Source: Escherichia phage vB_EcoM-Ro121c4YLVW. Taken from it: DNA of 64,000 nucleotides. Below the pieces are notes generated by a model. It was not told the DNA's origin, searched no databases, and saw only the letters and a list, made by a program, of their open reading frames with translations. Numbering within the stretch: position 1 is the first letter of the stretch; each line of letters starts with the position of its first letter. Made by a program: the position numbers and the translations under genes. The stretch lies in the sequence record NC_052654.1; one strand, 5' to 3'. Of this stretch, positions 1 to 15,600 are shown one piece after another.

Positions 1-1
1 A

Positions 2-904: not shown

Positions 905-1371
905 ATTTTGCAGGATATGAACCTGTAGATCTTATTAATGGTGAGGGAGTTAGGTGCTCCCTCTGGGTTAGTGGTTGTAGCCACGGTTGTCGTGGCTGTT
1001 TTAACCAGAAAGCCTGGTCTTATTCTTATGGGAAACCGTTCACTAACGAAAATGTAGAGCAAGTTTTAAAAGATTTGTCAAGACCGTTTGTAAAAGGTTT
1101 AACAATTTTAGGAGGAGAACCATTAGATCCGCAGAATATTTACAATGTTAAAAACCTTATAGAAAAGGTTAGAGACGTTTATGGGTCAAGCAAAGATATA
1201 ATGGTGTATACAGGATATACTTTTGAGGAAGTGCCTTTGTATATTAAAAATCTTGTTGACATTATTGTAGACGGAAAGTATGAAATAAACAATCCAACCA
1301 CAAAACCTTTCAGAGGGTCAGATAATCAAAGATTATGGACCAAAACGGCGAGTGGTTGGCAATCAGATTAG
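901..1371 (+). CDS. nrdG: Anaerobic RNR activating protein (radical SAM)
   Basis: TTG start overlaps the nrdD stop. CSHGCRGCFN matches the CxxxCxxC radical-SAM cluster, and a GGEPL motif is present. Size is about 156 aa and it sits next to nrdD. Confidence 0.9.
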   Translation: MNFAGYEPVDLINGEGVRCSLWVSGCSHGCRGCFNQKAWSYSYGKPFTNENVEQVLKDLSRPFVKGLTILGGEPLDPQNIYNVKNLIEKVRDVYGSSKDIMVYTGYTFEEVPLYIKNLVDIIVDGKYEINNPTTKPFRGSDNQRLWTKTASGWQSD

Positions 1372-1384
1372 CGTAGGAGGTTTT

Positions 1385-1576
1385 ATGGTTACATATTTTG
1401 CTGTAGGAGATAGGGTAGGGACGGCAGGAGAACTTTTGAAGAACAGTGATCGGGACGTTAAGGACATTCTTGCAACCCTTGTGGATATTTTACAAAGAAA
1501 AGAGTTGCTTTCTGATCGAGATGTTGCTAAATTACTTGATATCGGAGGAGATGAACTTCAAAGACTTCCATTTTAA
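1385..1576 (+). CDS. Hypothetical small protein
   Basis: ATG at 1385 is preceded by gtaggagg, so the track start at 1352 is probably an upstream extension. No recognisable motif. Confidence 0.4.
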   Translation: MVTYFAVGDRVGTAGELLKNSDRDVKDILATLVDILQRKELLSDRDVAKLLDIGGDELQRLPF

Positions 1577-1591
1577 GTGAGGAGATAAGTA

Positions 1592-2197
1592 ATGCAACAT
1601 AGTGTAGTAGTCAACATGCCGAATAGTGGGGATAAATCTTTTGGTGTCCCTGCTAAAAAAGTGTGGAAAGCCCATTTTCATCTTACTTTATCTAACGTTA
1701 GTTCTGAAGAGTTGATGAAAGCAGCTAAGATTATTGGTGCCAAATGCACAACAATTGATTTACATCGGGATACAAAGTCTCAACGTGATCGTATGTTAAC
1801 AAAGTATCAAAGCGATCTCGACACTACTTTAATGTTGCAGTGTGTAGAAAAACTTGAGAATGCAGGTTTCAATGTTGTTCGTTACAAACTGGAACGAATG
1901 TTTAAACATGTTGCCTGTGTTCTTTTCATGGATCTAAGTAAAGAAAATTACGGAGAAGTTCACATTAAGACTTCAGCAAGTGATCCCGAAGTAGAAACAA
2001 ACTTCTTCCGTATTTCTTCTAATGCTGAAGAAATTGATTACCGATTTTATAATGCTCGCTTATATTCCGCAGAAGATAAGTTGCGTTTCAATGAAGCGTA
2101 TGATATGCTCTTGAACAGTGGGATACAGATAAAAGGCTACCACATAGAACAAGTGGTAGTGGACAGTAATCTTAACTTAGACGCATGGTGGGCTTAA
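1592..2197 (+). CDS. Hypothetical protein, first gene of the HAD/PRTase/macro operon
   Basis: RBS gaggag lies upstream and the stop is 1 nt before the HAD gene start. A single HLTL (H-x-T-x) motif is not enough for a family call. Confidence 0.6.
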   Translation: MQHSVVVNMPNSGDKSFGVPAKKVWKAHFHLTLSNVSSEELMKAAKIIGAKCTTIDLHRDTKSQRDRMLTKYQSDLDTTLMLQCVEKLENAGFNVVRYKLERMFKHVACVLFMDLSKENYGEVHIKTSASDPEVETNFFRISSNAEEIDYRFYNARLYSAEDKLRFNEAYDMLLNSGIQIKGYHIEQVVVDSNLNLDAWWA

Positions 2198-2198
2198 T

Positions 2199-2855
2199 AT
2201 GACTATTAAACATATCTCTTTTGATGTATGGAACACACTGATCACAGCAAACTCCAATTACGCAGACATGCGAGCCTGGACTATCGCAAAATATGGAGAT
2301 ATTACGGAAGTGGAAGCAAGAGCAGCTTATAAAAAGATCAAAAAGGAACTGGATAATGCAGCACTTCAAGGCAAAGCCGAGTGTGCAGCATACGCTTGGG
2401 AAAGACTTGGTTCTGAACTTGGGATAACGCCTTGGAAGTCTGCAAAGCTTCGTTTCGAGTGTGAACAGTGGTTCCTTAAGTTTCCACCACACGTAGCCGT
2501 GGATCTGCCGATGTACTTGCTGTATCTTTCGGGGCGTTATGATTTGAGTATTAAGAGCAATACCAACTTCATATCAGGGGATATCCTGCGTCGTGCTTGT
2601 AAGTTTGATAGTTGGAATTGTTTTGAGTTCACCCATTTCTCGGATGAAGCTTTACTTTGTAAACCAGATCCGCGATTCTTTGCTCGCACGCTCACGTATT
2701 CTCCGGTCCCTCTGTTAGGGCACGAAGTATTGCACGTAGGCGATAGTGAAGAATATGATGGAAAATGTGTTGACTTAGGATTTAACTTCTGTCATATTAA
2801 GAACCCTAACGACTTACTAGAGAAACTTAAAAGAGGAGAAATTGTAAATGCGTAA
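2199..2855 (+). CDS. HAD-superfamily hydrolase/phosphatase (haloacid-dehalogenase-like subfamily)
   Basis: Four HAD motifs are present: motif I FDVWNTL (compare FDxYGTL), motif II SIKSNTN, motif III CKPDPRFF, motif IV HVGDSEEYDG. Confidence 0.85.
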   Translation: MTIKHISFDVWNTLITANSNYADMRAWTIAKYGDITEVEARAAYKKIKKELDNAALQGKAECAAYAWERLGSELGITPWKSAKLRFECEQWFLKFPPHVAVDLPMYLLYLSGRYDLSIKSNTNFISGDILRRACKFDSWNCFEFTHFSDEALLCKPDPRFFARTLTYSPVPLLGHEVLHVGDSEEYDGKCVDLGFNFCHIKNPNDLLEKLKRGEIVNA

Positions 2856-3675
2856 TCAAACTCAAATTTTTGCAAATAAATTTGATGACCTGGAAACTGC
2901 TACTTTTGATATCAAAGATTATTCAAAATTGAAATTTGGTAGTAACCAAGCTGCGCGTCGTATGGGTAAAGAATTGGCACTTCAGTTTTTTGCTCAAGTG
3001 GCAATGAAACATATTGGGGAACAATTTGTTATCATCCCTTCTCCTTATAACCATGTGCATAATGCTGCAACAATGATGACAGATCATTTTATTAATTACT
3101 TTAATATGTTGCAAGCACAATATGATCAAGGTCGTTCAGCAGAACTGGATATTATTCATCGTAAAGTTAGCTATATCAACGATTATGGTTTCTTGGATAA
3201 AGCTAGTCGTAAGAAACTTATTGATGGGGATACATTCTACTGCAACAAAGAATTCTGGGGTGATAAGAAGCTTGTGTTCATTGATGATGTAAATATCACC
3301 GGAACTCATGAAGACAAACTGATTGAGATTCTTGATGAAAATCAAGTTAAAAATGATGTTTACTTCTTGTATTTTGCAAAATATGAAGGTAATCAAGCAG
3401 ATACTGAAGCTAAACTGAATTTTAACTACATCAATACACCAGAAGCGTTTGTTAAAATGATTAATGAAGAACGTGATGCACAGTGCCTTGTTCGTCCTAT
3501 TAAGTATCTTATGGGCCAAAATCACGAAGACTTCAAAATCATTCTTAGCCAATTGCCACACTACTATGTAGAGCAACTTTTCTTTGGATGTTTGGGAGAA
3601 GGTTACAACCGAATTTCAAAGTATGCTGAAAACTTTGAATTCTTGGATCGTTACACAAAACAACATATTCTGTAA
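2848..3675 (+). CDS. Phosphoribosyltransferase (type I PRTase fold, Ter-associated/ComF-like type)
   Basis: PRPP-binding loop KLVFIDDVNITGTHEDK (hydrophobic-DD-x-x-TG-T). The ORF overlaps the HAD gene by 8 nt. Confidence 0.8.
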   Translation: MRNQTQIFANKFDDLETATFDIKDYSKLKFGSNQAARRMGKELALQFFAQVAMKHIGEQFVIIPSPYNHVHNAATMMTDHFINYFNMLQAQYDQGRSAELDIIHRKVSYINDYGFLDKASRKKLIDGDTFYCNKEFWGDKKLVFIDDVNITGTHEDKLIEILDENQVKNDVYFLYFAKYEGNQADTEAKLNFNYINTPEAFVKMINEERDAQCLVRPIKYLMGQNHEDFKIILSQLPHYYVEQLFFGCLGEGYNRISKYAENFEFLDRYTKQHIL

Positions 3676-3688
3676 TAAGGAGCTAAAA

Positions 3689-4162
3689 ATGCTTAAAATG
3701 AAAACAGGTAATCTTATTGATGCCGCTAAAGCAGGAGAAGTAACTGTTATTGCTCATTGTTGCAATTGTATGTGTAATATGGGAGCAGGAATTGCTCCGC
3801 AAATTAAACGAGCATTCCCTTATGCATATGCGGCAGATTTAGACACAATGGCTGGTGATCAAAGTAAGTTAGGTTCTTTTAGTTTAGGGGTGCCAGACGA
3901 ACAATCAGACCCTTTGGTATATAATCTATACGGACAATACCGTTACGGATACAATGCTAAAGGTCGTCAGTTGGACTATGATGCACTTTACGATGCACTA
4001 ATAGCTATGGCTAATGATTTGCTTCTCCGTGACCAAAAATGTAAGATCGGCTTACCTATGATTGGCGCTGGATATGCTGGAGGTAATTGGGCTATCATCC
4101 AAGTGATGATTGAAGAAACTTTAGTAAAAACAGGTCACGATGTGACTATTTATAAACTTTAA
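3689..4162 (+). CDS. Macro-domain protein (ADP-ribose binding/processing)
   Basis: Start re-set to the ATG at 3689 (RBS aaggag, after the PRTase stop at 3675). Motifs: GNLIDA...VIAHCCNC...GAGIAPQIKRAFP and GLPMIGAGYAGGNW. Confidence 0.8.
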   Translation: MLKMKTGNLIDAAKAGEVTVIAHCCNCMCNMGAGIAPQIKRAFPYAYAADLDTMAGDQSKLGSFSLGVPDEQSDPLVYNLYGQYRYGYNAKGRQLDYDALYDALIAMANDLLLRDQKCKIGLPMIGAGYAGGNWAIIQVMIEETLVKTGHDVTIYKL

Positions 4163-4174
4163 GAGGAGATTAGT

Positions 4175-4396
4175 ATGGGTGTTTTTGCAGGTATTGTTGC
4201 AGTGGTAAGCTTTTTTGTTATTGCTTTTATGCTTAGTTTGATTCCAGCTTGGTTACTGTTGCTGGCTTACAACTATGTTGCTGAAGTTATGGGTCATGCA
4301 GATATCACTGTCCCAGTAACCTTCTGGACCGTGGTTTGTGTTTCGTTTATTCTGGCGGTATTACGAGGAATCTTTTCCTCTCATTCAACAAAATAA
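4175..4396 (+). CDS. Small membrane protein with two predicted TM helices
   Basis: RBS gaggag. The 73-aa product is almost entirely hydrophobic (VFAGIVAVVSFFVIAFMLSLIPAWLLLLAY; FWTVVCVSFILAVL). Confidence 0.55.
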   Translation: MGVFAGIVAVVSFFVIAFMLSLIPAWLLLLAYNYVAEVMGHADITVPVTFWTVVCVSFILAVLRGIFSSHSTK

Positions 4397-4399
4397 GTG

Positions 4400-4427
4400 T
4401 TGACATAGTTCTTAAAAAGAGTAAGAT
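4400..4427 (+). promoter_or_regulatory. Sigma70-like promoter upstream of the TerC gene
   Basis: TTGACA (4400-4405), about 16 nt spacer, TAAGAT (4422-4427). Confidence 0.5.
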
Positions 4428-4439
4428 ATATCACATGAA

Positions 4440-4458
4440 GCGGGGAATAGTTCCCCGC
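4440..4458 (+). promoter_or_regulatory. 5'-UTR stem-loop in the TerC leader
   Basis: GCGGGGAA-tag-TTCCCCGC forms a perfect 8-bp stem. There is no U-tract and the RBS gagaggag follows. Confidence 0.5.
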
Positions 4459-4475
4459 AAAGAGAGGAGAAAAGA

Positions 4476-5447
4476 ATGCAACTCGGTTTCCCAATTATTG
4501 ATGTAGTTGTTTTAGTTGGTATTTTGGCATTGTCTATTGGTATCGATTTCTTTGGTCATAAAGAGAATAAAGAAATTGGAATTAAATCTGCTTTGCTTTG
4601 GTCTGTTTTTTGGATTGCTTTAGCTTTAGGATATTACGCATTCATTTGGGTAGAGCATGGTAAAGAGTTTGCCGCACTTTTCCTAAGTGGATATGTGTTG
4701 GAAAAGAGTCTTTCTGTAGATAACCTAATGGTGTTCATGGCAATTTTTGCAAGCTTTGGAATTAAGAGCACACATCTCCAACATAAGATTTTACTTTGGG
4801 GTATTGCAGGTGCCATTGTCTTCCGAGGTGTTTTTGTTGCAGCAGGGACAGCTTTGTTTAACCTGCATTGGTCGGTCCAAGTGTTGTTCGGTCTGATTGT
4901 AGCTTGGTCTGCCGTTGCTATTATCAAAGGTGGTGACGAAGAAGATATTGATTACTCTAAACATTGGGCTGTTCGTTTAGTAGGTAAAGTTCTGCCTGTG
5001 CACAACGCACTGGATGGTGAAAAGTTCATTACCATTAAGAATGGTATTAAATATGCAACTCCTGCTCTTCTTTGTGTGTTTGTTATTGAGCTTACAGATA
5101 TTGTGTTCTCTTTTGATTCAGTTCCGGCTGTTATTGGTGTGACACAAGAACCTCTGCTAGTTTATTCTGCAATGCTGATGGCTGTTCTTGGTTTACGTGC
5201 ACTTTTCTTTGTGTTAAGTGTAGCTGTGAAATATCTGGTTCACTTAGAGAAAGCTGTTGCTGTGGTTCTGGTGTTTGTTGGTGCTAAACTTATGTATCAC
5301 CCGTTCGGTGAAACACTTCATGCCAAGTGGTCATTCCTCCCGCATGATATTTCCCCTAACGTAAGTCTGATGATTGTTCTAGGCACATTAGCTCTTGGTG
5401 TTATTGCAAGCTTTATCTTCCCTGAAAAAGAAGAAGCTGCTGTTTAA
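4476..5447 (+). CDS. TerC/Alx-family integral membrane protein
   Basis: Polytopic hydrophobic protein carrying the TerC signature GYVLEKSLSVDNLMVFMAIF, and a second half with FSFDSVPAVIGVT. Confidence 0.9.
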   Translation: MQLGFPIIDVVVLVGILALSIGIDFFGHKENKEIGIKSALLWSVFWIALALGYYAFIWVEHGKEFAALFLSGYVLEKSLSVDNLMVFMAIFASFGIKSTHLQHKILLWGIAGAIVFRGVFVAAGTALFNLHWSVQVLFGLIVAWSAVAIIKGGDEEDIDYSKHWAVRLVGKVLPVHNALDGEKFITIKNGIKYATPALLCVFVIELTDIVFSFDSVPAVIGVTQEPLLVYSAMLMAVLGLRALFFVLSVAVKYLVHLEKAVAVVLVFVGAKLMYHPFGETLHAKWSFLPHDISPNVSLMIVLGTLALGVIASFIFPEKEEAAV

Positions 5448-5453
5448 TAGATG

Positions 5454-5477
5454 AGCCTCCTTCGGGAGGCTATTTTA
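5454..5477 (+). terminator. Rho-independent terminator
   Basis: AGCCTCC-ttcg-GGAGGCT followed by attttat. Confidence 0.75.
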
Positions 5478-5489
5478 TAGGAGAGACTT

Positions 5490-5840
5490 ATGAGTAATTT
5501 TGATGAAATTCAAAAACTTGTTTGGGATTTACCTGATGATGTTGATTACGTTTCAGATTATCTTTCAAAAGTTTACCCTGGGGTAAGCGTTATGATTGTG
5601 ACCAAAGATCCAATTAATTTGCCTCCTAATGTGGTAGCTTGTTGTGGGAGTGGTTCAGGGGAAGTGGAGCCTGTATCCCGTTGGGAATTAACTAAAGCTG
5701 TTTCAAAACGAAACGGTGAAGTTTTGAATATTGATATCGAGCAAATATGGACTTCTCCAGCAGCTAAATGGAATGATCCGAATGGTTGGGACTTGTTCTT
5801 CTGGGATAATGAAACTGATGATGAGGTATTTTTAAAATGA
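5490..5840 (+). CDS. Hypothetical protein
   Basis: RBS aggagag. 116 aa with no recognisable motif. Confidence 0.55.
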   Translation: MSNFDEIQKLVWDLPDDVDYVSDYLSKVYPGVSVMIVTKDPINLPPNVVACCGSGSGEVEPVSRWELTKAVSKRNGEVLNIDIEQIWTSPAAKWNDPNGWDLFFWDNETDDEVFLK

Positions 5841-6082
5841 AATACTTGTTGGTTGTGTTTGAAAATATTTGTTTTGCAATAGGGTTGTTTGTTGTAATTT
5901 TTGTATTGACAAGCGTAATCAACGGCAGTAAAGTGAGTTTATACCGAGATGGAGAGCAACTTTATTGCTTCTCTGGAGATTTCAAACACAGATGTATTAA
6001 TAGCCAAAACGAGGAAAGCAAATATGAAAAAACTAGCCCTGATTTTAATTGGTTGTATCTTTTTAACAGCTTGCGAGGATGA
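5837..6082 (+). CDS. Possible small membrane protein (uncertain)
   Basis: ATGA overlap with the upstream stop and a hydrophobic N-terminus. However, it overlaps the lipoprotein gene start by 59 nt and contains a promoter-like site. Confidence 0.3.
   Translation: MKYLLVVFENICFAIGLFVVIFVLTSVINGSKVSLYRDGEQLYCFSGDFKHRCINSQNEESKYEKTSPDFNWLYLFNSLRG
5906..5934 (+). promoter_or_regulatory. Sigma70-like promoter upstream of the lipoprotein gene
   Basis: TTGACA (5906-5911), 17 nt spacer, TAAAGT (5929-5934). Confidence 0.4.
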
Positions 6083-6461
6083 AACAAATCCTGCACAATA
6101 CCAACAACCTCCTCAACAATACGCTCAACAAGGATCTGACGGAGATACAACTATTATCAACAATGGTGGCGGTTCTAGTAGTAGCGGTGTTGGTGAGTTT
6201 GCTACAGGTATGTTGTTAGGGCATATGATGAGTGGCGGTAGTAATCGTAGCAGTGGGGATTATAACGATAACAGAACGATTATTAATAAGCATTATAATA
6301 CACCTAAACCGAAAACTAATTTTTATAGTAAGCCTAAACAAGAGATAAAAACTTATGAAAAGCCGAGACAAACTTTTAAAACAAATAGTAGCTATACAAC
6401 TCGTAAATCTTACAATAGCCCTTTAAGTAAAAAGAGTTCATCTCGTAGCAAGCGACGTTAA
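6024..6461 (+). CDS. Lipoprotein with a Gly/Ser-rich middle and a Lys/Ser-rich basic tail
   Basis: Start re-set to the internal ATG. MKKLALILIGCIFLTAC is a signal peptide with a lipobox (LTAC). The RBS is gaggaaag. Confidence 0.7.
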   Translation: MKKLALILIGCIFLTACEDETNPAQYQQPPQQYAQQGSDGDTTIINNGGGSSSSGVGEFATGMLLGHMMSGGSNRSSGDYNDNRTIINKHYNTPKPKTNFYSKPKQEIKTYEKPRQTFKTNSSYTTRKSYNSPLSKKSSSRSKRR

Positions 6462-6475
6462 TAAGGAGAAAAACA

Positions 6476-7069
6476 ATGACAATTTCTATTCGTACTTCCA
6501 TCGTAGGTGTTAAAAGGTTGCCTAATGCTTTGCAAATCACACGCGCTTTGAGGGATACATTCTCTGCTGTGGACGAGCATAAGATGCTTGATAATCTTTC
6601 AAATTGGCCCTATTTCCATTATTTTAAAAATGAAGATGACGAGTTTATAGACGCTGTTTCTTATGGTTATGATTTCGGTAAGGAGGTTTCTGCTGAAGAA
6701 TTTGTAGCTATGGTGTTCCCAAACGGTTTGCCTACTCGCAGTAAACGTAAAAAAGGACCAAAAAACAAGAAACGTGCTACTAATAAAGCTACCATTTTCT
6801 TTACTGATGGCACACAATATACGATTAAAGATTTTGAAGAGGTATCTTATACAGCAGGTGGGAATCTTTCTTTCTACACCATCAAAAAACAAAACTCTAC
6901 GTTCAGCCATGTTTCTAACATGATTGAAATGTTAGTAGAAGATATTGAAAGCGTAGCTGTGTTAGGTATGCATAAAAGCTTTTTAATTACAAATATTTCA
7001 GATTTCAGTGCACGTTTATCTGGTCCTGATTTTGAAACCACGACCACGCATTTCACTTTTAAGGTGTAA
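6476..7069 (+). CDS. Hypothetical protein with a basic patch RSKRKKGPKNKKR
   Basis: RBS aaggagaa. 197 aa with no family motif recognised. Confidence 0.55.
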   Translation: MTISIRTSIVGVKRLPNALQITRALRDTFSAVDEHKMLDNLSNWPYFHYFKNEDDEFIDAVSYGYDFGKEVSAEEFVAMVFPNGLPTRSKRKKGPKNKKRATNKATIFFTDGTQYTIKDFEEVSYTAGGNLSFYTIKKQNSTFSHVSNMIEMLVEDIESVAVLGMHKSFLITNISDFSARLSGPDFETTTTHFTFKV

Positions 7070-7072
7070 GTT

Positions 7073-7663
7073 ATGTATACCGAGAGAGACTTGCAACTCT
7101 TGTGGTGGGAAGTGATGCAGGAAATAAAAGAAGATTTTCCTGTTTACTACAACATGTTACGTGAAGCAGGATATAAAGCTTGTGTTAGAAACAAAGTGAA
7201 TAACTCTTTCGGTTGGTGCAACTACCGAGATAAAATTGTTGTTGTAAATTGGCACTTGCATAAGAACTCTACAAGAGATATGATCGTGGATACAATGAAG
7301 CACGAAATTGCTCATGCTATTGATGGTTGTATGGGTAAGTTTAGTAGACACGGTGCTCATTGGCAAAAACTGGCAGCAGAGTTAGGGGCTAATCCTAAAG
7401 CCACTTCCAAAGAGCCGTTGAACCACGAATATAAATATGTTCTTGTTCTGGTAGATAGGTTTGCGACAAGATGTGTTAGAGGTTATAATCGTAAACCTAA
7501 TCGCATGTACCCAGGTAAGCAACCTAATATGTGGTTGAAATCAGATAAAGAAGGGACCGAAGGAAAATTATGGTTGTATAAATGGGACGATTGGGTTAAA
7601 GTAGCTAAAGAGTACGGTGTTTCACCATATATAAGAGATGCAGAAGAGGAGAATGAAGAATGA
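7073..7663 (+). CDS. SprT-like zinc metallopeptidase-domain protein
   Basis: MKHEIAHAIDG...HGAHWQKLAAELGANP contains the HExxH motif plus a downstream His, typical of SprT-like domains. Confidence 0.75.
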   Translation: MYTERDLQLLWWEVMQEIKEDFPVYYNMLREAGYKACVRNKVNNSFGWCNYRDKIVVVNWHLHKNSTRDMIVDTMKHEIAHAIDGCMGKFSRHGAHWQKLAAELGANPKATSKEPLNHEYKYVLVLVDRFATRCVRGYNRKPNRMYPGKQPNMWLKSDKEGTEGKLWLYKWDDWVKVAKEYGVSPYIRDAEEENEE

Positions 7664-8772
7664 CAAGTCCATTTTTAAAAGCAGCTACTGGCGGTCAGAA
7701 GAAGCCTGAAATGAGCGTATTTGCTGCAACAACAGATGCAAGTAAATCTGTATTCGCTCCAAGCGTGTTAGATGCCAGTCCTGTTTATGCACCAGCGGCA
7801 CCGCAAGAAGTTCCAGTTTTGCCTTCTATGACCCGACAAGAGATCGAAGAGATTGGGGCAGAGGCAGGAACAACCTTGCGTTCCTTGAATGCCGAGGTAT
7901 TAAAACATCAACGTAGTAATCAAGGCGATCAGATGAGTGAACGACTCACAGCTTTGATTAAACAGGCAAAACAACTTGATCCAAACTCTATTAAACAAAG
8001 CAAGGGTATTACTAAACTCATTAAAAAAGTTATGGGTATGAAAGAAGATCTGTTTGGGGAGTTTGATAATGTTAATAACCGTATTGAAGAGTTGGTAAAA
8101 AACCTTCAAATGGATATTCGCAAAGAAGAAGATTCCTTGGTATATCTTGAAAAGCTACATCAAGCTATTGGACAATATGCTGCAAGTTTGAACCGAGATA
8201 TGCAGCTTCTAACAGCAACCTATGAAAAAGAAGAACAAGCTTTGGCTGCTCTTCCAGAAGATGCAGTAGAACAGCGACAAGTGATCCGAGATACTTTGGA
8301 TCTTCTGGAGATTCGTATTGCAGATTTAAAAGCATTGCGCCTACTGTGTGTCCAAATGGGACCGCGTGTACAAGGTATGCAAAAAGTTTCTGCAAGCTTA
8401 ATGCGATCTGCGCGTAACATAGTAAATAATGTTATTCCTGCTTACTCTGCTAACTTCTCAATGTATATCGAGAGCTTACGTCAAATGAAAGCAGCAGAGA
8501 CGCAGAATAACGTTCTTGATGAATTTAACCTGGCAATTAAACTGGGTAGCGATCTTGCCACACAGAATCAGATAGAAGCAGCAGCACTGGCTAACCGTCA
8601 AGTGTTGGATATTGAAACTCTGCGTCACGATCAGGAAAACTTGGTTAAGATGTTGGAAGAAACTAACCGCATCAATACGGAAGCCCGTGCTGCTCGTGTT
8701 GATTATATTAATGAAGTTCAATCTTTGGAAGACGGGATGGTAGCTGCTGTGAAACGAGGGCTTGGTAAATGA
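7660..8772 (+). CDS. TelA-like (toxic anion resistance) protein
   Basis: ATGA overlap with the SprT gene. The 370-aa product is all-helical with a layout like TelA/KlaA/YceH: an N-terminal disordered region followed by long helices, e.g. LTALIKQAKQLDPN, NRIEELVKNLQ. Confidence 0.7.
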   Translation: MTSPFLKAATGGQKKPEMSVFAATTDASKSVFAPSVLDASPVYAPAAPQEVPVLPSMTRQEIEEIGAEAGTTLRSLNAEVLKHQRSNQGDQMSERLTALIKQAKQLDPNSIKQSKGITKLIKKVMGMKEDLFGEFDNVNNRIEELVKNLQMDIRKEEDSLVYLEKLHQAIGQYAASLNRDMQLLTATYEKEEQALAALPEDAVEQRQVIRDTLDLLEIRIADLKALRLLCVQMGPRVQGMQKVSASLMRSARNIVNNVIPAYSANFSMYIESLRQMKAAETQNNVLDEFNLAIKLGSDLATQNQIEAAALANRQVLDIETLRHDQENLVKMLEETNRINTEARAARVDYINEVQSLEDGMVAAVKRGLGK

Positions 8773-8966
8773 GAATCCGTATCTATATAATTGATGAGGA
8801 CATTGGTGTCCGTTATGATGACGAAAAACGATTCGCACCAATGGGAGGCATATATCCCCCAAGTGTTCTAGCAGTTTGTCGTGATTGTTATATTTATGAA
8901 GGTTGTCGTAACTTCCGTAAATTCCAACTCCTTGCAGATATTGACTTCAATGAGGAGGAGGAGTAA
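8769..8966 (+). CDS. Hypothetical small Cys-containing acidic protein
   Basis: ATGA overlap with the TelA stop. Contains CRDCYIYEGC and an acidic tail NEEEE. Confidence 0.45.
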   Translation: MRIRIYIIDEDIGVRYDDEKRFAPMGGIYPPSVLAVCRDCYIYEGCRNFRKFQLLADIDFNEEEE

Positions 8967-9139
8967 TGAAAATATTACGAGTGAATATTGAAACTGCTTG
9001 GTGTGGATGCAATGAGGTTGTGGATATCGAAATTGAAGATGATATGTCTCAAGAGGATATAGAAGATCTTGCCCACGAAACCTTTCAGGACTATTGTAAT
9101 TACGGGTTTCATATTTTAGAGGAGGAAGAAGATGTTTAA
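8966..9139 (+). CDS. Unlisted 57-aa strongly acidic ORF (below the track length cutoff)
   Basis: TAATG overlap with the upstream stop, and its own stop overlaps the next start (9132). Translation by hand: MKILRVNIETAWCGCNEVVDIEIEDDMSQEDIEDLAHETFQDYCNYGFHILEEEEDV. It fills an otherwise empty gap. Confidence 0.45.
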   Translation: MKILRVNIETAWCGCNEVVDIEIEDDMSQEDIEDLAHETFQDYCNYGFHILEEEEDV

Positions 9140-9335
9140 CTACGATAACGATCCTAATATTATCCAGTTAACCCGACAAGAACTGATCACAATCATTGAA
9201 GATGCTTTTATTGATGGTTGGAATACACAAGATAATGACTGGGGTGGACCCGAAGCTTTTCTGGAACATCATAAAGCTTATGGAGAATTTTGTGAAACCA
9301 CTGTAGCTCTTGATAATCTGAAGGAGGGTTTGTAA
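9132..9335 (+). CDS. Hypothetical small acidic protein
   Basis: RBS gaggaggaag. 67 aa. Confidence 0.5.
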   Translation: MFNYDNDPNIIQLTRQELITIIEDAFIDGWNTQDNDWGGPEAFLEHHKAYGEFCETTVALDNLKEGL

Positions 9336-9898
9336 TGGGTTGTTTTAGTTTTTTGTGCAAAGAATCGGGCAAAGCTGCCCTTTCTACTTCTTTCGACGGA
9401 TCACCTTGCTACCTCTTTCTTTTGAAAGACGGTGTTGTTATTGAAGAGATGTATGGCAACTATGATAGTTATGGTTGTGTTTTCTCTGGAAAAGAGGATG
9501 AAAATGGCGTTCGTGAACGGTTCGAATGGGCTATGGATTGGGGTAAGGTTTGTGATTTAATGCATTCCTCAAATCCAAGGGACGGTATTGCTATGGTGCT
9601 GGAAGAGTACTTTACAGGTGAAATCCCTACAGAACAATCTGACGGAGATCCTAATCAAGGTTGGGGTGATGGTGAAGAAGATCCAGATTGTTTTTTCAGC
9701 ACAGAAAAGAATAAGTTTAAACGTGTTGACAACCCTTATCACAAAGTGCATAATACTCTCATTGAAACAGAAGATGACAAGATGGAAATTGAAGAAGATG
9801 ATCCTCTTGTAACACTTCCTATAAGTGAGTTACAAAAGATCACTAAGGAAGCTTACGATTTGGGCTTCAAAATTGGTAGAGGAGGTATGCGTGTTTAG
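9335..9898 (+). CDS. Hypothetical protein
   Basis: TAATG coupling to the upstream ORF. 187 aa with an acidic middle region. Confidence 0.6.
   Translation: MGCFSFLCKESGKAALSTSFDGSPCYLFLLKDGVVIEEMYGNYDSYGCVFSGKEDENGVRERFEWAMDWGKVCDLMHSSNPRDGIAMVLEEYFTGEIPTEQSDGDPNQGWGDGEEDPDCFFSTEKNKFKRVDNPYHKVHNTLIETEDDKMEIEEDDPLVTLPISELQKITKEAYDLGFKIGRGGMRV
9726..9754 (+). promoter_or_regulatory. Internal sigma70-like promoter upstream of small paralog A
   Basis: TTGACA (9726-9731), 17 nt spacer, CATAAT (9749-9754) with TG just upstream. Confidence 0.4.
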
Positions 9899-10169
9899 AT
9901 TCAATATTCAAGAAGAAAAAAGTCAGGATTTACCTATTGCTTTCGAAGATCTTGACGTAGGGGCCACATTCATGTATTATGATGCCTATGAAGACGCAGG
10001 GTTGGATACCTACCGTAACTTGGTGTTCATTAAAAATTCCACAAACAGTGCGATTTGTATTAATGGATCACTAGCACAACGAGGCTATACTCATTGCATC
10101 CCACCAGATACAAATATGGTGGAAGTAGATTTAGAAGTTACCAATATTACACTTAAGAAGGAGAAATAA
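9891..10169 (+). CDS. Small beta-rich protein, paralog A (precedes the vWA gene)
   Basis: Start re-set to the GTG at 9891, 5 nt after ggagg. It aligns with the 11191-11460 product: F.I.E.K...DLDVG.TF.Y..A....GLD....V..K ... .VE.L.VT.ITLK. Confidence 0.6.
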   Translation: MFRFNIQEEKSQDLPIAFEDLDVGATFMYYDAYEDAGLDTYRNLVFIKNSTNSAICINGSLAQRGYTHCIPPDTNMVEVDLEVTNITLKKEK

Positions 10170-10170
10170 T

Positions 10171-10965
10171 ATGTCCGAGAAAATCAGCCTGAAAAAACGT
10201 CAAGAAAACCTTGCTTTCTCTCTGAAAAAGAATAAGAACCTGAATGAAGGTAAGATTGTTCTTCGTGTAGCATGTGCTCTAGATATTTCTGGTAGTATGC
10301 ATGGTCTATATTCTAGTGGGGTAGTGAGTGATTTTGTAGGTAAACTGCTTCCTTTTGGTATGCTGTTCGACGATAATCAACAAATTGATATGTGGGCCTT
10401 CAATACGAGTTCCCAAGAGCTTACTCCAGCAACAGCAGACGTTTACGATGACTATGTTGGTAAATGTATGCGTAATGTTCGTATCGGAGGTGGAACAAAT
10501 TACGCCCCTGTAATGGCAGATATCTACGATGAGTATTTTGGCACTGTTACCAAATATATTACCACTAAACAAGTGGTACAAGAGGAGGCTCCAAAGAAAG
10601 GCTTCTTTAATCGTCTGCTTGGTAAAACTGAAACAGTGTCTGTAGAGCGTGAAAAAGTTGTAGCTGTATCTGAACCAGGTGCTGACGTTACCCCTGGTGT
10701 TGTATTCTTCCAGACGGATGGTGAGAATGGTGATCCTAGTGCTGTTCGTCGTCTTATTGAAGAGAATAAGAATAAACCTATTTATTGGTTCATGGTTGGC
10801 GTTGGTAATGAGAAGTTTGGCTTCCTGAAAGAACTGGCAAATGCTTATGATAATGTTGGTTTTATTGGCATTAAAGATTTAGACTTGACAGATTCAGAGC
10901 TTTATGACAAACTCTTATCTGAAGAGTTCGGAGAGTGGGTTGTTAAAGTAGGTGCTAAAAAATGA
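10171..10965 (+). CDS. von Willebrand factor A domain protein (TerF-C-terminal-type vWA)
   Basis: MIDAS motif ACALDISGSM, downstream GGTNY, and the FFQTDGENGD motif. The N-terminus EKISLKKRQENLAFSLKK mimics the first strand of TerD domains. Confidence 0.8.
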   Translation: MSEKISLKKRQENLAFSLKKNKNLNEGKIVLRVACALDISGSMHGLYSSGVVSDFVGKLLPFGMLFDDNQQIDMWAFNTSSQELTPATADVYDDYVGKCMRNVRIGGGTNYAPVMADIYDEYFGTVTKYITTKQVVQEEAPKKGFFNRLLGKTETVSVEREKVVAVSEPGADVTPGVVFFQTDGENGDPSAVRRLIEENKNKPIYWFMVGVGNEKFGFLKELANAYDNVGFIGIKDLDLTDSELYDKLLSEEFGEWVVKVGAKK

Positions 10966-11210
10966 TCGACGAGCTTGCCTCTCAAGTCGTAGAAAATTAT
11001 TGGCGCGAGAGAGAAGCTTTCATTATGCGCAGTCTCAAAGAGTATTTCATTGGGACTGTGCGAATGGAAGATATTGTAAGTAGAGTAGAGATTCATGTAT
11101 GGCCCGATTATGAAGAATGGGTTGACAAAGAAAATGAAAATGCTATAATTCTTCGTATATACAAACCGGAGATAACATTAGGAGGAAGAAGTGTTAAACT
11201 TCGAAATTGA
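10962..11210 (+). CDS. Hypothetical protein
   Basis: ATGA overlap with the vWA stop. 82 aa. Confidence 0.5.
   Translation: MIDELASQVVENYWREREAFIMRSLKEYFIGTVRMEDIVSRVEIHVWPDYEEWVDKENENAIILRIYKPEITLGGRSVKLRN
11122..11149 (+). promoter_or_regulatory. Internal sigma70-like promoter upstream of small paralog B and TerD
   Basis: TTGACA (11122-11127), 16 nt spacer, extended -10 TGcTATAAT (11141-11149). Confidence 0.5.
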
Positions 11211-11460
11211 TGAGCAAAAAGTAAATAAACGATGCCTTACCATTAAAGATTTGGATGTAGGAGATACTTTCGTCTATGAAAATGCATTTGACGAAAATGG
11301 TTTAGACCTTAGTGAAATCATTGTTTATTTAAAAGTAGATGATGGGGAAAATGATTATTCTGCTGTAGAACTAAACCATCATGCACAATTAGTATCAATC
11401 CAAAACACATCTAAGCTTTTGGAAGTAGAATTGACTGTAACTGGTATTACACTTAAATAA
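11191..11460 (+). CDS. Small beta-rich protein, paralog B (precedes the TerD gene)
   Basis: GTG start after ggaggaag. Paralogous to 9891-10169. Confidence 0.6.
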   Translation: MLNFEIDEQKVNKRCLTIKDLDVGDTFVYENAFDENGLDLSEIIVYLKVDDGENDYSAVELNHHAQLVSIQNTSKLLEVELTVTGITLK

Positions 11461-11475
11461 TAGAGGAGACAAAAG

Positions 11476-12078
11476 ATGACTGATAAAATTTCCCTGAAAA
11501 AAGGCTCTAGCGAAAAAATTTCCCTGAAGAAAGTTGCTCCGGCTCTGAAAGAACTGCGCCTGGAATTCTCTTGGAAATCTGATTCTAAACTGGATCTGGA
11601 TGTAAGTGCACTGGTTTGTCGTCATAATGCCGCTGGCAATCCTGAAATGCTGTCCGCACGTCATCTGGTTTGCTATGCTAACAAGTTTGATCCTGAACGT
11701 TCTACCTTCGCTGGTGACGATGTTCGTGATGGGACTGGCAGCATGGAGCAGATTGATATTACTCTGGCTAAAATCTCTCCTGATGCACAAGAGATTGCCT
11801 TTGTTCTGACCATTGATGATGATACAGGTCTGAAACGTTTTGGTCATGCTTCTGAAGGTATGCTTAAAATCTTCGACTCCGAGCGTAATGTGGAAATTCT
11901 GGATTTTGACTTCCTGGCTCCTGAAGTAGCTGGCAACACAATCTGCCACGTGGCTTCCCTGGTTCGTGAAGATGGAGAATGGAAGCTGAAAGCATATGGT
12001 GTAGGTAAAGCTGGTCTGGATATTTGCGATGTGGTGATGGCCTTCGGTGGTAAAAAAGAATGGTATGAATGTCCATAA
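11476..12078 (+). CDS. TerD-domain protein (tellurium-resistance TerD family)
   Basis: DKISLKKGSSEKISLKKVAP...LDLDVSALVC and the Ca-binding-type loop FAGDDVRDGTGSMEQIDITL match E. coli TerD (VSLSKGGNVSLSK...FDLDASAF...GDNRTGEGDGDDE). 18 of 19 Leu codons are CTG. Confidence 0.9.
   Translation: MTDKISLKKGSSEKISLKKVAPALKELRLEFSWKSDSKLDLDVSALVCRHNAAGNPEMLSARHLVCYANKFDPERSTFAGDDVRDGTGSMEQIDITLAKISPDAQEIAFVLTIDDDTGLKRFGHASEGMLKIFDSERNVEILDFDFLAPEVAGNTICHVASLVREDGEWKLKAYGVGKAGLDICDVVMAFGGKKEWYECP
11485..11528 (+). repeat. 14-nt perfect direct repeat (aaaatttccctgaa) 30 nt apart, encoding the duplicated KISLKK strand
   Basis: Copies at 11485-11498 and 11515-11528, read directly from the sequence. 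Confidence 0.9.
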
Positions 12079-12096
12079 TAATTAACAAATGATTTT

Positions 12097-12116
12097 GAGG
12101 GGGAGAAATCCCCCTC
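12097..12116 (+). terminator. Stem-loop terminator after the TerD gene
   Basis: GAGGGGGA-gaaa-TCCCCCTC, with only a short T run after it. Confidence 0.55.
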
Positions 12117-12145
12117 TTGCAATAAAGCCTCTATCGTGTTATACT
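12117..12145 (+). promoter_or_regulatory. Sigma70-like promoter for the hydrolase gene
   Basis: TTGCAA (12117-12122), 17 nt spacer, TGtTATACT (extended -10, 12137-12145). Confidence 0.5.
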
Positions 12146-12177
12146 AGAAGTTCGTTAACTTAAAAAGGAGGCAAAAT

Positions 12178-12699
12178 TTGCTGATAAAAAACTTTGTAAC
12201 AGTTGCGTTACTATCCTTAACTGCTTTTACATTTACACCTGTTGTGGCGAAAGCCGAAGCTGCAAACGTAAAAACCGCTAAAGTAGTTCACAAATGTACA
12301 AAGCAATATAATGATAAAATTCTATTAGCTTGTGCAATTTACGCAGAAGGTCGCGGTCTGGGTAAAAAAGGAATGAATGCCGTTGGGAATGTGGTAATCA
12401 ACAGAAGAAATGATGCCTACTTCCCTAACACAGTCAAGGGAGTCTTGTTCCAGAAAGGGCAATTCTCATATGCGAAAACTTTTAACGTGACAGAGAAAGA
12501 TAAGTGGCAGGAAGCAAAAGCAATAGCGGAGCGTTTACTTTATTTAGAGAAACATTTTCCTGAATTGCGGTCTGTTTTAGATGTTACTAAAGGTGCTCTA
12601 TACTTCAAGAAACGGAATATAAGGACACACTGGGAGCGTGATATGCGTCTTGTTTATCGAGATAAAGTGCATGGTTTCTATCTACCAAAGGGGAGTTAA
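12178..12699 (+). CDS. Secreted cell-wall hydrolase, SleB-like (candidate endolysin)
   Basis: TTG start after aaggagg. N-terminal signal or SAR-like segment LIKNFVTVALLSLTAFTFTPVVAKAEA. Core motifs: CAIYAEGRGLG..GMNAVGNVVINRRND.YFPNTVKGV..QKGQFSY. Confidence 0.75.
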   Translation: MLIKNFVTVALLSLTAFTFTPVVAKAEAANVKTAKVVHKCTKQYNDKILLACAIYAEGRGLGKKGMNAVGNVVINRRNDAYFPNTVKGVLFQKGQFSYAKTFNVTEKDKWQEAKAIAERLLYLEKHFPELRSVLDVTKGALYFKKRNIRTHWERDMRLVYRDKVHGFYLPKGS

Positions 12700-12700
12700 A

Positions 12701-12985
12701 ATGCAAGAAGATAATACTGTTGTTGTAGCAAGTTACCTGGTTGTCGGTCTTACCGAAGAGGACGTATACTACACCCGTAAACATTTGGAAGCATACACTA
12801 CTTTGTTTATGGAAGATGAAAAAGATGTAGATAAATATAGCATTGATATGATCAACGACAGTATTTATCCTTGTATGGTTCTTAAAGTAGATGCTGTGCT
12901 GTGGGAGCGTTTTGCAAGGACTCATGATGCTGTAGAATGCTCCGCAGTAATGTCTCAAAACAACATTTTAGGGGAGATTCACTGA
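12701..12985 (+). CDS. Hypothetical protein
   Basis: Start re-set to the ATG at 12701, 2 nt after the hydrolase stop (RBS ggggag). The track extension from 12638 overlaps the hydrolase gene. Confidence 0.5.
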   Translation: MQEDNTVVVASYLVVGLTEEDVYYTRKHLEAYTTLFMEDEKDVDKYSIDMINDSIYPCMVLKVDAVLWERFARTHDAVECSAVMSQNNILGEIH

Positions 12986-13215
12986 TGGGAGAAGTCATTG
13001 AAGTAAATTTTCGCACTAAACAAAAAGTGCAAAAATATGTTGTTATTAAAAACATTTGCGTTGTCTGCTTCAATACTGTAATATACGATTCACGACGCGG
13101 AGAAAACGAAAATGAACCTTACATTGAAATTTCTAAGAACAAAGGTCAATGTATTTGTAAGAACTGTGCAGTAGCTATTAAGGAGGTTGTAAATGAAAAC
13201 GCTTGGGACCAATGA
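12985..13215 (+). CDS. Small zinc-ribbon-like protein
   Basis: TGATG coupling at 12985. Contains CVVCFN...CICKNC (CxxC...CxxC). Confidence 0.5.
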   Translation: MGEVIEVNFRTKQKVQKYVVIKNICVVCFNTVIYDSRRGENENEPYIEISKNKGQCICKNCAVAIKEVVNENAWDQ

Positions 13216-13964: not shown

Positions 13965-13972
13965 GAGAGAAA

Positions 13973-15593: not shown

Positions 15594-15600
15594 GTGAAGT

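Follow-up and report, generated by a model that had tools for sequence, protein, structure and literature searches.

An abbreviated Ter gene core and a HAD–PRTase_3 pair in the replication arm of an Escherichia Phapecoctavirus genome

A modular 10-kb block

The 10.5-kb block considered here (positions 1592-12078) lies in a 64,000-nucleotide stretch, called the window throughout, of the genome of Escherichia phage vB_EcoM-Ro121c4YLVW (NC_052654.1), where a sequence-only reading had proposed a Ter/TelA-type stress-response gene set. Every open reading frame (ORF) named in that reading was found on the + strand at its coordinates. The block almost certainly carries an abbreviated phage-borne Ter set characteristic of the Stephanstirmvirinae (phAPEC8- and phi92-like myoviruses). 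The 10 kb reads as a series of modules and not as one rearranged system: its Ter-related part resolves into a four-gene core (TerC, TelA, vWA and TerD) and an autonomous HAD–PRTase_3 cassette, and both are interleaved with apparently unrelated accessory genes (Macro, SprT, an AbiEi-like gene, the ORF starting at 9335 and small lineage-specific ORFs). The earlier picture of a single 'rearranged, phage-specific version' of a ter locus does not hold, since SprT, Macro, the 9335 protein, the 1592 protein and the HAD–PRTase pair each occur elsewhere without Ter genes. The core and cassette comprise:

2199-2855, + strand: likely hydrolase of the HAD superfamily, in the PRTase_3-coupled subfamily; 8-nucleotide overlap between its end and the start of PRTase
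2848-3675, + strand: PRTase_3 (ComF-like, type I phosphoribosyltransferase), Ter-associated; Pfam PF15610, 6e-42, 144 bits versus a cutoff of 28.7
4476-5447, + strand: TerC/Alx-family integral membrane protein; Pfam PF03741, 7.5e-40, 137 bits versus a cutoff of 27.8
7660-8772, + strand: TelA-family protein; Pfam PF05816, 3.2e-33, 115.7 bits versus a cutoff of 30
10171-10965, + strand: stand-alone vWA-TerF-like protein of 264 amino acids; Pfam PF10138, 1.6e-37, 130 bits versus a cutoff of 29.4
11476-12078, + strand: TerD-domain protein with a shortened acidic (Ca2+-site) loop; Pfam PF02342, 3.2e-28, 98.9 bits versus a cutoff of 25.3

For the block, identity was 99.2% with Escherichia phage MirsaeidiM_Esher1 and 97-98.6% with ~60 further Phapecoctavirus genomes, among them phAPEC8 (97.7%) and ESCO13. 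Phapecoctavirus comprises virulent myoviruses of ~150 kb within the subfamily Stephanstirmvirinae. On the 5′ side of the block lie the anaerobic ribonucleotide reductase genes NrdD/NrdG (window 113-1371), and on its 3′ side a signal-peptide endolysin, four glycosyltransferases, a primase/helicase, a Dam-type methylase and DNA polymerase I; beyond this replication arm the structural genes converge from the opposite strand, with a GC-skew switch near 26 kb. The Phapecoctavirus identity and the position on the replication arm bear out the description of the block as the early region of a lytic-looking myovirus, and because it sits on the arm devoted to replication and nucleotide metabolism, its expression is likely early or mid-infection. 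The G+C content was uniform over the replication arm (0.37-0.40), and there is therefore no sign of recent import.

Comparisons were made with the sister genus (Justusliebigvirus muut), with the divergent Phapecoctavirus-like phage phiWec179 and with distant phages. The survey of related phages that the sequence-only reading had called for found the Ter core and the HAD–PRTase pair kept in two genera, with conserved synteny, the Ter core proteins being 66-81% and HAD and PRTase_3 50-65% identical in amino acid sequence; the core was retained in Phapecoctavirus, Justusliebigvirus and related Klebsiella phages. By the ratio of nonsynonymous to synonymous substitution rates (dN/dS), purifying selection acts on both the core genes and the enzyme pair. 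Between the window and phiWec179, with dS saturated for many genes and the values accordingly approximate, dN/dS was ~0.03 for TelA, ~0.05 for TerD and PRTase_3, ~0.10 for TerC and ~0.11 for HAD, and this range (0.03-0.11) was similar to that of NrdG and the glycosyltransferases.

The Ter core proteins

The family calls for TerC, TelA and vWA were confirmed by curated hidden Markov models above their cutoffs. TerC also exceeded the cutoff of the Alx/TerC model TIGR03718 (318.9 bits versus 246.4, residues 10-317); its translation shows multiple hydrophobic segments, and the protein is 72% identical in muut. The TelA match spans profile positions 13-327 of 332, and TelA homologues were found in 223 phage records; a search for a homologue of solved structure returned none.

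The metal-ion-dependent adhesion site (MIDAS) of the vWA protein (D38-x-S40-x-S42, T109, D183) is intact, as had been predicted, and was invariant over four phage lineages. TerF proper consists of TerD fused to a C-terminal vWA domain, and here the vWA domain was found alone in its 264-residue protein. Its closest homologues were likewise stand-alone proteins, encoded on contigs of ~140-150 kb, and bacterial TerD-vWA fusions (~424-459 amino acids, PF02342 + PF10138) were distant, at 28-31% identity.

The description of the last gene as a 'canonical TerD' was right as to family, given the Pfam match and a match to the solved Klebsiella TerD (PDB 2KXT) at 1.5e-15, but not as to the acidic loop, which is shortened and less acidic. 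The loop reads GDD-VRDGTGSM-EQ versus GDNRTGEGDGDDE in 2KXT, with several acidic positions replaced, and the acidic segment of 3-5 residues (DDE-containing) present in other phage TerDs is missing. The motif GDNxTGEGDGDDE is the acidic Ca2+-binding loop signature of Klebsiella TerD, reportedly described by Pan and colleagues in 2011.

Several components of bacterial ter loci were sought. One bacterial locus recovered in the analysis, L017, carries the classical set (C-C lyase, StiP/PELOTA, PRTase_2, TerC, TerD, TerF, AIM24, ATPgrasp_Ter and TelA), and it substantiates the proposed link to bacterial ter/telA neighbourhoods. When one L017 exemplar each of ATPgrasp_Ter, C-C lyase, PRTase_2, StiP and AIM24 was compared by tblastn with a complete Phapecoctavirus genome, no match was obtained at E < 0.01. 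No ORF of the block matched TerB, ATPgrasp_Ter, C-C lyase or PRTase_2/TRSP in Pfam, and the block does not amount to a complete bacterial ter operon or biosynthetic module. The earlier statement that TerB, the ATP-grasp and the TIM-barrel lyase are missing is thus supported by tblastn for ATPgrasp_Ter and the C-C lyase, and for TerB by the Pfam search of block ORFs only, TerB itself not having been queried by tblastn.

The HAD–PRTase_3 pair

The PRTase_3 match spans profile positions 9-264 of 264, and the loop that binds phosphoribosyl pyrophosphate (PRPP), DDVxITGxHE, is intact and invariant. Membership of its partner in the HAD superfamily is likely: the Pfam match (3.6e-4, 21.4 bits) falls below the cutoff of 26.4, NCBIfam HAD-IA models matched at 2.5e-8, homologues in the viral loci L036 and L049 exceed the Pfam cutoff, and the nucleophile Asp, motif III Lys and motif IV Asp residues are conserved. 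HAD phosphatases use the residue at Asp+2 as their general acid/base. Motif I in the window reads D-V-W-N-T, and Asp+2 was Trp or Tyr in 15/15 PRTase_3-coupled HADs examined, bacterial members included, so that the usual 'phosphatase' label for this group may be wrong. The predicted 'HAD phosphatase and PRTase' is therefore sound for the PRTase and, more weakly, for the HAD superfamily, whereas the phosphatase activity is less secure, the acid/base at Asp+2 being replaced. The PRTase_3-coupled HADs share the motif K-H-[IV]-S-F-D-x-[W/Y]-x-T, with an aromatic residue at Asp+2 as in dehalogenase-type HADs.

In phages, on a plasmid and in a metagenome-assembled genome (MAG), HAD always lay directly before PRTase_3, usually overlapping it, and the predicted task of the pair is the synthesis or processing, from PRPP, of a small molecule resembling a ribonucleotide. 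A search for bacterial proteins closely related to the phage PRTase recovered none. A scan of bacterial genome contigs turned up only a MAG that contains the phage itself and a single Fibrobacterota contig in which HAD–PRTase stands by itself, and a plasmid search (E ≤ 1e-3) returned rhizobial (Rhizobium/Sinorhizobium) plasmids and one Hymenobacter plasmid only, with no enterobacterial plasmid among the matches, the ter-bearing IncHI2 types included.

The HAD protein was 76.6% identical to that of ESCO13, where neighbouring genes are 99-100% identical, and 93% identical to that of phiWec179 (dS 0.32), where neighbours are 73-79% identical (dS above 2). From this pattern the HAD allele reads as a recombination mosaic.

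Predicted signals for transcription and translational coupling

The following sites bear on expression of the core:

4400-4427, + strand: σ70-type promoter-like site (TTGACA, 16-nucleotide spacer, TAAGAT) directly 5′ of TerC, found by scan
4440-4458, + strand: stem-loop in the TerC 5′ leader, just 5′ of the ribosome-binding site; kept in muut at 7208-7226
5454-5471, + strand: intrinsic-terminator-like hairpin directly 3′ of TerC, with a 7-bp stem containing five G-C pairs, a TTCG loop and a T-rich tail
11122-11149, + strand: predicted perfect σ70 consensus (TTGACA, 16-nucleotide spacer with TG, TATAAT), inside ORF 10962-11210 and before ORF 11191-11460 and TerD

TerC appears to form a separate transcription unit read by the host RNA polymerase. 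At the site equivalent to 4400-4427 the phAPEC8 record carries the annotation of a host-dependent promoter, and muut retains both the TerC promoter and the leader hairpin, in whose stem a G-C pair is replaced by A-T as a compensatory change. The hairpin at 5454-5471 heads the list of terminator-like elements in the scan and has an equivalent GC hairpin after TerC in muut. The leader stem-loop may serve as a stabiliser or in the control of translation. A yybP-ykoY or other riboswitch before TerC was considered and rejected, as no match was found when positions 1-13000 of the window, TerC leader included, were compared with Rfam at E ≤ 1.

Further downstream, the site at 11122-11149 was the sole 12/12 promoter match in 17 kb. 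Promoter-like sites as a class were not above chance, with 56 found versus 49.6 ± 5.2 expected in shuffled sequence, so that this site is no more than a candidate promoter. Most gene junctions between 7073 and 11476 overlap or abut, consistent with translational coupling. The description of the block as same-strand, mostly coupled ORFs is accordingly apt for 7073-11476, but a single co-expressed unit is unlikely because TerC lies between a promoter-like site of its own and a strong hairpin resembling a terminator.

Ter cores in viral contigs

To survey the core in other viruses, IMG/VR was scanned with an alignment of the vWA protein, yielding 52 loci, all ORFs of which were searched with hidden Markov models built from the collected sequences. 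Within 10 kb of the vWA gene, the distance used throughout this census, TerD was present in 32/52 loci, TerC in 30/52 and TelA in 27/52, and in 18/52 the vWA gene had no other Ter gene nearby. Clustering at 50% vWA identity gave 18 clusters, 12 of them Ter-positive (at least two of TerC, TerD and TelA) and six vWA-only. Pfam spot-checks on a sample of ORFs from lineages L036 and L049 agreed with the census.

Four independent viral lineages (L035, L036, L049 and L060) had HAD–PRTase_3 within the Ter cluster, in L049 back to back in the order TerD-HAD-PRTase_3-vWA-TerC, which supports a real link between cassette and core in phages. A second class of neighbours belongs to pathways of NAD+ reconstitution, in which an adjacent Prs-like and Nampt-like pair defines NARP1 and Nampt with NMNAT defines NARP2. 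A Nampt-type gene together with a Prs-like or NMNAT/Nudix gene was found in five Ter-positive clusters, and a Neobacillus prophage-like locus has the order TerD-vWA-TerC-Prs-like-NAMPT. HAD–PRTase_3 and/or a NARP-type pair was present in 8/12 Ter-positive versus 0/6 vWA-only clusters (Fisher one-sided p = 0.011). This proximity is suggestive only, given the small number of lineages, the tendency of accessory genes to gather in regions of this kind and the larger stock of such genes in large phages. In the phage studied here the NARP genes were absent: tblastn of a complete Phapecoctavirus genome with three Nampt, two Prs-like and two NMNAT phage proteins gave no match, so that neither NARP1 nor NARP2 is encoded in recognisable form. 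No mention of a proximity between Ter cores and NAD+-reconstitution genes was found in the literature searched.

Accessory and neighbouring genes

The block also contains ~13 ORFs without a family assignment, more than the earlier count of about 10. The accessory genes that could be characterised, in part from their translations, are:

1592-2197, + strand: AbiEi-like protein of 201 amino acids at the 5′ edge of the block; PADLOC AbiEi, 4.7e-13, nearly full length
3689-4162, + strand: Macro domain protein of the TARG1/DarG/SCO6735/Poa1p class; Pfam PF01661, 22.7 bits versus a cutoff of 22 (borderline)
4175-4396, + strand: small protein with two hydrophobic segments (from translation), just before TerC; 60% identical in muut, at the same position
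5837-6082, + strand: single-transmembrane protein (from translation); kept in muut
6024-6461, + strand: putative lipoprotein with a MKKLALILIGCIFLTAC lipobox (from translation), overlapping ORF 5837-6082; kept in muut
7073-7663, + strand: SprT-like zinc metallopeptidase with a HEIAH motif; Pfam PF10263, 4e-9, 36.7 bits versus a cutoff of 25.6
9335-9898, + strand: protein without an assigned fold, from a phage family that is widespread and strongly conserved and is not specific to Ter loci
9891-10169, + strand: protein of ~90 amino acids directly 5′ of, and coupled to, the vWA gene; paralogue of 11191-11460
11191-11460, + strand: protein of ~90 amino acids directly 5′ of, and coupled to, TerD; paralogue of 9891-10169, absent from muut

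The Macro gene, which lies between PRTase and TerC, had been overlooked in the sequence-only reading. Besides the Pfam match it matched DarG in NCBIfam (1.5e-8) and in PADLOC (2.4e-10), and its PDB matches, down to 5e-13, included 5e3b, TARG1, DarG and Poa1p; its orthologue in muut scored 29 bits against Pfam Macro. It is not DarG in the sense of the equivalog model NF048014, for which it scored 34.3 bits versus 250 and matched the first 147 of 338 profile positions, and at 157 amino acids it lacks the DarT-binding C-terminal domain. The window protein is 40.6% identical to an Otagovirus Macro protein encoded within two genes of a Prs-like and Nampt-like pair, and the phAPEC8 record annotates its gene as common to FelixO1, rV5 and PVP-SE1. 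The roles known for such proteins in phages are reversal of DarT DNA ADP-ribosylation and ADP-ribose-1''-phosphate (ADPR-1''-phosphate) phosphatase activity (Adpp), and the window gene is probably an independent counter-defence or ADP-ribose-processing gene. The annotated ATG at 3689 is a more plausible start than the TTG at 3584 that gives the longest ORF, which overlaps PRTase.

ORF 1592-2197 matched nothing in Pfam, AbiEi included, or among PDB sequences, and no AbiEii-like gene adjoins it. Its AlphaFold2 model (mean predicted local distance difference test score, pLDDT, 82) shows ferredoxin-like βαβ repeats with no obvious winged helix-turn-helix; a 2H-phosphoesterase was also considered and set aside, the model giving generic ferredoxin-like matches only. 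Homologues occur in 110 records of Rheinheimera ('Barba') phages. The protein is rich in invariant charged and His residues. By its distribution the gene lies outside the Ter set, and it could act as an antitoxin mimic against AbiE-type abortive infection. Orphan antitoxin-like counter-defence genes are documented in phages, and the DarG-like Macro and the AbiEi-like ORF suggest that the region hosts counter-defence genes as well.

SprT and TelA overlap by ATGA, so the coupling that had been proposed for these two genes stands along with the protease assignment. SprT is apparently coupled to TelA in translation yet not Ter-specific, as its homologues (365 phage records) are mostly from Klebsiella, Vibrio and Streptomyces phage groups lacking TelA matches. 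The 9335 family (314 homologues) is found elsewhere beside RNA-ligase, kinase and metallophosphatase genes, without Ter genes. The two ~90-residue paralogues are 33% identical (E 5e-10) and have a DLDVGxTF motif in common; neither has a family assignment, 9891-10169 matched nothing in Pfam, and records of Stephanstirmvirinae-like phages (of Escherichia, Klebsiella and other hosts) contain relatives. Between TelA and ORF 9335 lie three consecutive small acidic ORFs (8769-9335), one of which (8966-9139) encodes an acidic protein of 57 residues whose match to DUF7167 (23.2 bits) is below the cutoff of 24.4.

Immediately 3′ of the block, 12178-12699 encodes a SleB-like endolysin with a signal-like hydrophobic N-terminus and a TTG start. 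After three further small ORFs come four consecutive glycosyltransferase genes (13401-16545), before the primase/helicase, whose target may be DNA, the virion or the host envelope. Records under the host names Campylobacter and Acinetobacter, such as MG065650 ('Campylobacter phage B15') and OP562383 ('Acinetobacter phage vB_AbaM_ABPW7'), were ~98.5% identical to the window over the entire 10.5 kb, which suggests that these host labels are wrong or that the deposits are contaminated.

Previous descriptions of phage Ter genes

Annotations of TerC, TelA, TerE/TerD, VWA, 'orotate phosphoribosyltransferase', a hydrolase and a phosphatase are already present in the GenBank entries for these phages. 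In the part of the phiKp34 report that deals with them, terC, the terF vWA gene, terD and telA are given 'possible anti-viral functions', citing Anantharaman 2012, and bacterial ter/telA operons are presented as a membrane-linked stress-response and anti-viral system (PMC8386662). Ter genes have been discussed for phi92-like phages (PMC11162368), and the work on PhiPsa374 calls them widespread among phages and their functions 'unknown' (PMC9796965). In a comparative review from the Aravind group, Iyer et al. 2021 (section 3.4.10) described phage Ter systems with PRTase and HAD, and abbreviated TerD-TerC-TerF-TelA operons in jumbo phages of Caulobacter and in some other, smaller tailed phages that are related, and proposed superinfection exclusion (PMC7824862). 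The exclusion role that the sequence-only reading offered as speculation had thus already been published. The Ter gene set of this phage is a correct rediscovery of genes annotated and discussed before; the modular structure, the apparent transcription unit of TerC and the proximity of Ter cores to HAD–PRTase_3 and NARP-type genes are new.

A proposed role in infection and its alternatives

Taken as a whole, the block is probably best explained as a Ter core with a HAD–PRTase cassette, likely expressed early or in mid-infection, for which protection of the infected cell's envelope or exclusion of competitors is the favoured role. A specific mechanism is more tentative. In the one that we favour, which we regard as possible rather than probable, a membrane-associated Ter complex would do both. 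TerC would enter the inner membrane early in infection as a divalent-cation transporter, and TelA, vWA and TerD would assemble beneath it by metal-dependent contacts involving the MIDAS site. The complex would then shift the ion or membrane status, so that the infected cell could withstand membrane-directed insults, namely a second phage injecting its DNA (superinfection exclusion), pore-forming colicins or membrane-targeting abortive-infection effectors. The product of HAD–PRTase would be a signal or cofactor of the complex, as proposed for bacterial Ter systems. Plasmid ter operons confer phage-inhibition and colicin-resistance phenotypes.

Several observations weigh against this proposal. 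With TerB, TerD paralogues, the ATP-grasp and the lyase absent, the bacterial phenotypes may not transfer to the phage set. The degenerate acidic loop of TerD weakens the idea of Ca2+ sensing for this lineage, and stoichiometric co-expression is not evident for a core that is spread over 7.6 kb and broken by a terminator-like hairpin. The aromatic residue at Asp+2 of HAD means that the scheme in which a PRTase followed by a phosphatase gives a nucleoside is not secure, and the HAD–PRTase pair occurs without a nearby Ter gene in a Rhizobium phage, on the Rhizobium plasmid pRL10 and in a Fibrobacterota MAG. In PADLOC, no model matched any of the four core proteins. Finally, the literature search found no experimental study of any phage Ter gene, in agreement with the sequence-only reading, which gave the set no known role, and the proposed mechanism is drawn wholly from analogy.

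Among the alternatives, counter-defence through nucleotide or NAD+ metabolism ranks above metal homeostasis, followed by passenger genes and then by host resistance. In the first, which is unlikely although it fares best, the core together with transferases dependent on PRPP or ADP-ribose pyrophosphate (ADPR-PP) and with Macro would sense, buffer or rebuild a nucleotide pool that host immunity drains or turns into signals, and the block would be an anti-defence island. The enrichment of HAD–PRTase_3 and Nampt-type genes in Ter-positive over vWA-only lineages speaks for it, as does the Neobacillus locus. The Macro partners in NARP1 were recently shown to be ADPR-1''-phosphate phosphatases, and the window Macro resembles the Otagovirus protein in that position; candidate antitoxin-like genes (DarG-like and AbiEi-like) lie in the same block. 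However, the clustering of accessory genes in early regions makes proximity within 10 kb weak evidence, large phages encode more such genes, and the lineages are few and defined by one marker. Moreover, the complete Phapecoctavirus genome lacks the Prs-like, Nampt and NMNAT genes, and HAD–PRTase_3 is found alongside NARP-type genes in L036 and L049 and so is not simply their substitute; TerC, TelA and TerD are not known to have a biochemical link to NAD+. That the Ter core is wired to transferase modules of the PRPP/ADPR-PP type (HAD–PRTase_3 in this phage, NARP1- or NARP2-like genes in others, joined by a Macro phosphatase in one Otagovirus-like lineage), with the Ter 'nucleoside-like metabolite' belonging to NAD+/ADP-ribose metabolism, is more doubtful still. 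If true, it would make the phage Ter set a counter-measure to NAD+- or nucleotide-directed immunity and not an exclusion device, and the recurrent proximity of Ter cores to NAD+-reconstitution genes provides a modest new, testable lead.

It is also quite unlikely that the set serves metal homeostasis, with TerC/Alx exporting or delivering Mn2+ (or Ca2+/Zn2+), thereby sparing phage enzymes mis-metalation while nucleotides and DNA are made on a massive scale, or metalating exported phage proteins, and with TelA, vWA and TerD as metal-binding regulators. The score of TerC above the cutoff of the Alx/TerC metal-homeostasis model agrees with this, as do the intact metal site in the vWA MIDAS and the location of the block directly 3′ of ribonucleotide reductase and 5′ of a signal-peptide endolysin, and TerC-family proteins have been described as Mn2+ exporters or metal chaperones. 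The TerC leader, however, contains no Mn2+ riboswitch or known RNA element in Rfam, the metal loop of TerD is degenerate, and the association with TelA and HAD–PRTase is left unexplained. The host, in addition, already has Alx and MntP.

A further possibility, which we consider improbable, is that there is no system at all: the Ter-family genes would have been acquired separately and would act apart within one variable region, or some would be dispensable passengers. The block is indeed mosaic, as SprT and the ORFs starting at 1592, 5490, 8769, 10962 and 11191 are absent from muut, the 9335 gene and the putative lipoprotein (6024-6461) have no orthologue in phiWec179 and the HAD allele is recombinant, and a third of the viral vWA loci (18/52) stood apart from other Ter genes. 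Yet 12 viral lineages, and bacteria as well, have the four families together, often in contiguous genes; purifying selection on all of them is strong, and all are retained across Phapecoctavirus, Justusliebigvirus and the related Klebsiella phages. Least probable is a benefit to the host through tellurite or xenobiotic resistance of infected or pseudolysogenic cells, which is suggested by the family names and database annotations ('tellurite resistance') and, for xenobiotics during pseudolysogeny, was raised as an additional possibility by Iyer et al. 2021 (PMC7824862), but the phage is virulent and the infected cell does not survive to gain, the set contains neither TerB nor TerZ/A/E paralogues, and the authors of the PhiPsa374 study judged tellurium resistance unlikely for an incomplete phage set (PMC9796965).

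Ter/TelA loci are among the most widespread bacterial stress or defence loci lacking a mechanism. The compact phage versions represent natural minimal systems, here a core of four genes plus an enzyme cassette of two in a genetically tractable E. coli phage, and a core and cassette that can be deleted could show whether Ter proteins block entry, stabilise membranes or handle metals, and what the PRTase makes.

Comparison with known systems

With the orphan antitoxin-like counter-defence genes of phages (DarG-like macrodomains, the NADAR protein AdfN) the block shares a Macro protein that matches DarG models; it differs in that the match is far below the DarG equivalog cutoff (34 versus 250 bits) and the DarT-binding domain is lacking. 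The NARP1, NARP1-AP and NARP2 pathways (Osterman et al.) likewise involve PRPP-type transferase chemistry, and NARP1-AP includes a Macro partner (Adpp). In contrast to them, this phage is without the Prs-like/Adps, Nampt/Namat and NMNAT genes, and its PRTase_3 belongs to PF15610, as opposed to the NAPRTase/NAMPT_N families that mark Nampt. The two enzymes are taken to differ in type, PRTase_3 being a type I (ComF-like) PRTase and Nampt being type II.

The phage TerC, which fits the Alx/TerC model TIGR03718 over its full length, resembles E. coli Alx and B. subtilis MeeF/MeeY, TerC-family proteins described as Mn2+ exporters or metal chaperones. The phage leader differs from those of Alx, MeeF and MeeY in having a short hairpin only, with no riboswitch-like element detected. 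TelA, vWA and TerD are not known to accompany these housekeeping genes.

The bacterial and plasmid ter/telA loci (terZABCDEF of IncHI2 R478 and of E. coli O157) likewise contain TerC, TerD, a vWA-TerF-like domain, TelA, PRTase and HAD, families linked in neighbourhoods that were reportedly surveyed by Anantharaman, Iyer and Aravind in 2012. The phage set has one TerD, whereas the bacterial and plasmid loci have four to six paralogues; its vWA protein stands alone, whereas bacterial TerF is a TerD-vWA fusion; and its PRTase is PRTase_3, whereas bacterial ter loci carry PRTase_2/TRSP.

The closest counterparts are the Ter sets of other lytic phages: phi92/Justusliebigvirus, phAPEC8 relatives, phiKp34, the PhiPsa374 Otagovirus, Caulobacter jumbo phages and Acinetobacter phage ME3. 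The arrangement varies among them. In the Otagovirus and Caulobacter phages the four genes are contiguous, as in phiPsa397 and, in the order TelA-vWA-TerC-TerD, in CcrBL9, whereas in the Stephanstirmvirinae, the sister genus included, they are spread over 7.6 kb, with TerC apart in what appears to be its own promoter-terminator unit and with small lineage-specific genes interposed. All of these sets nevertheless comprise the same four core families, some of them together with PRTase and HAD, and all are located in non-structural regions of virulent phages.

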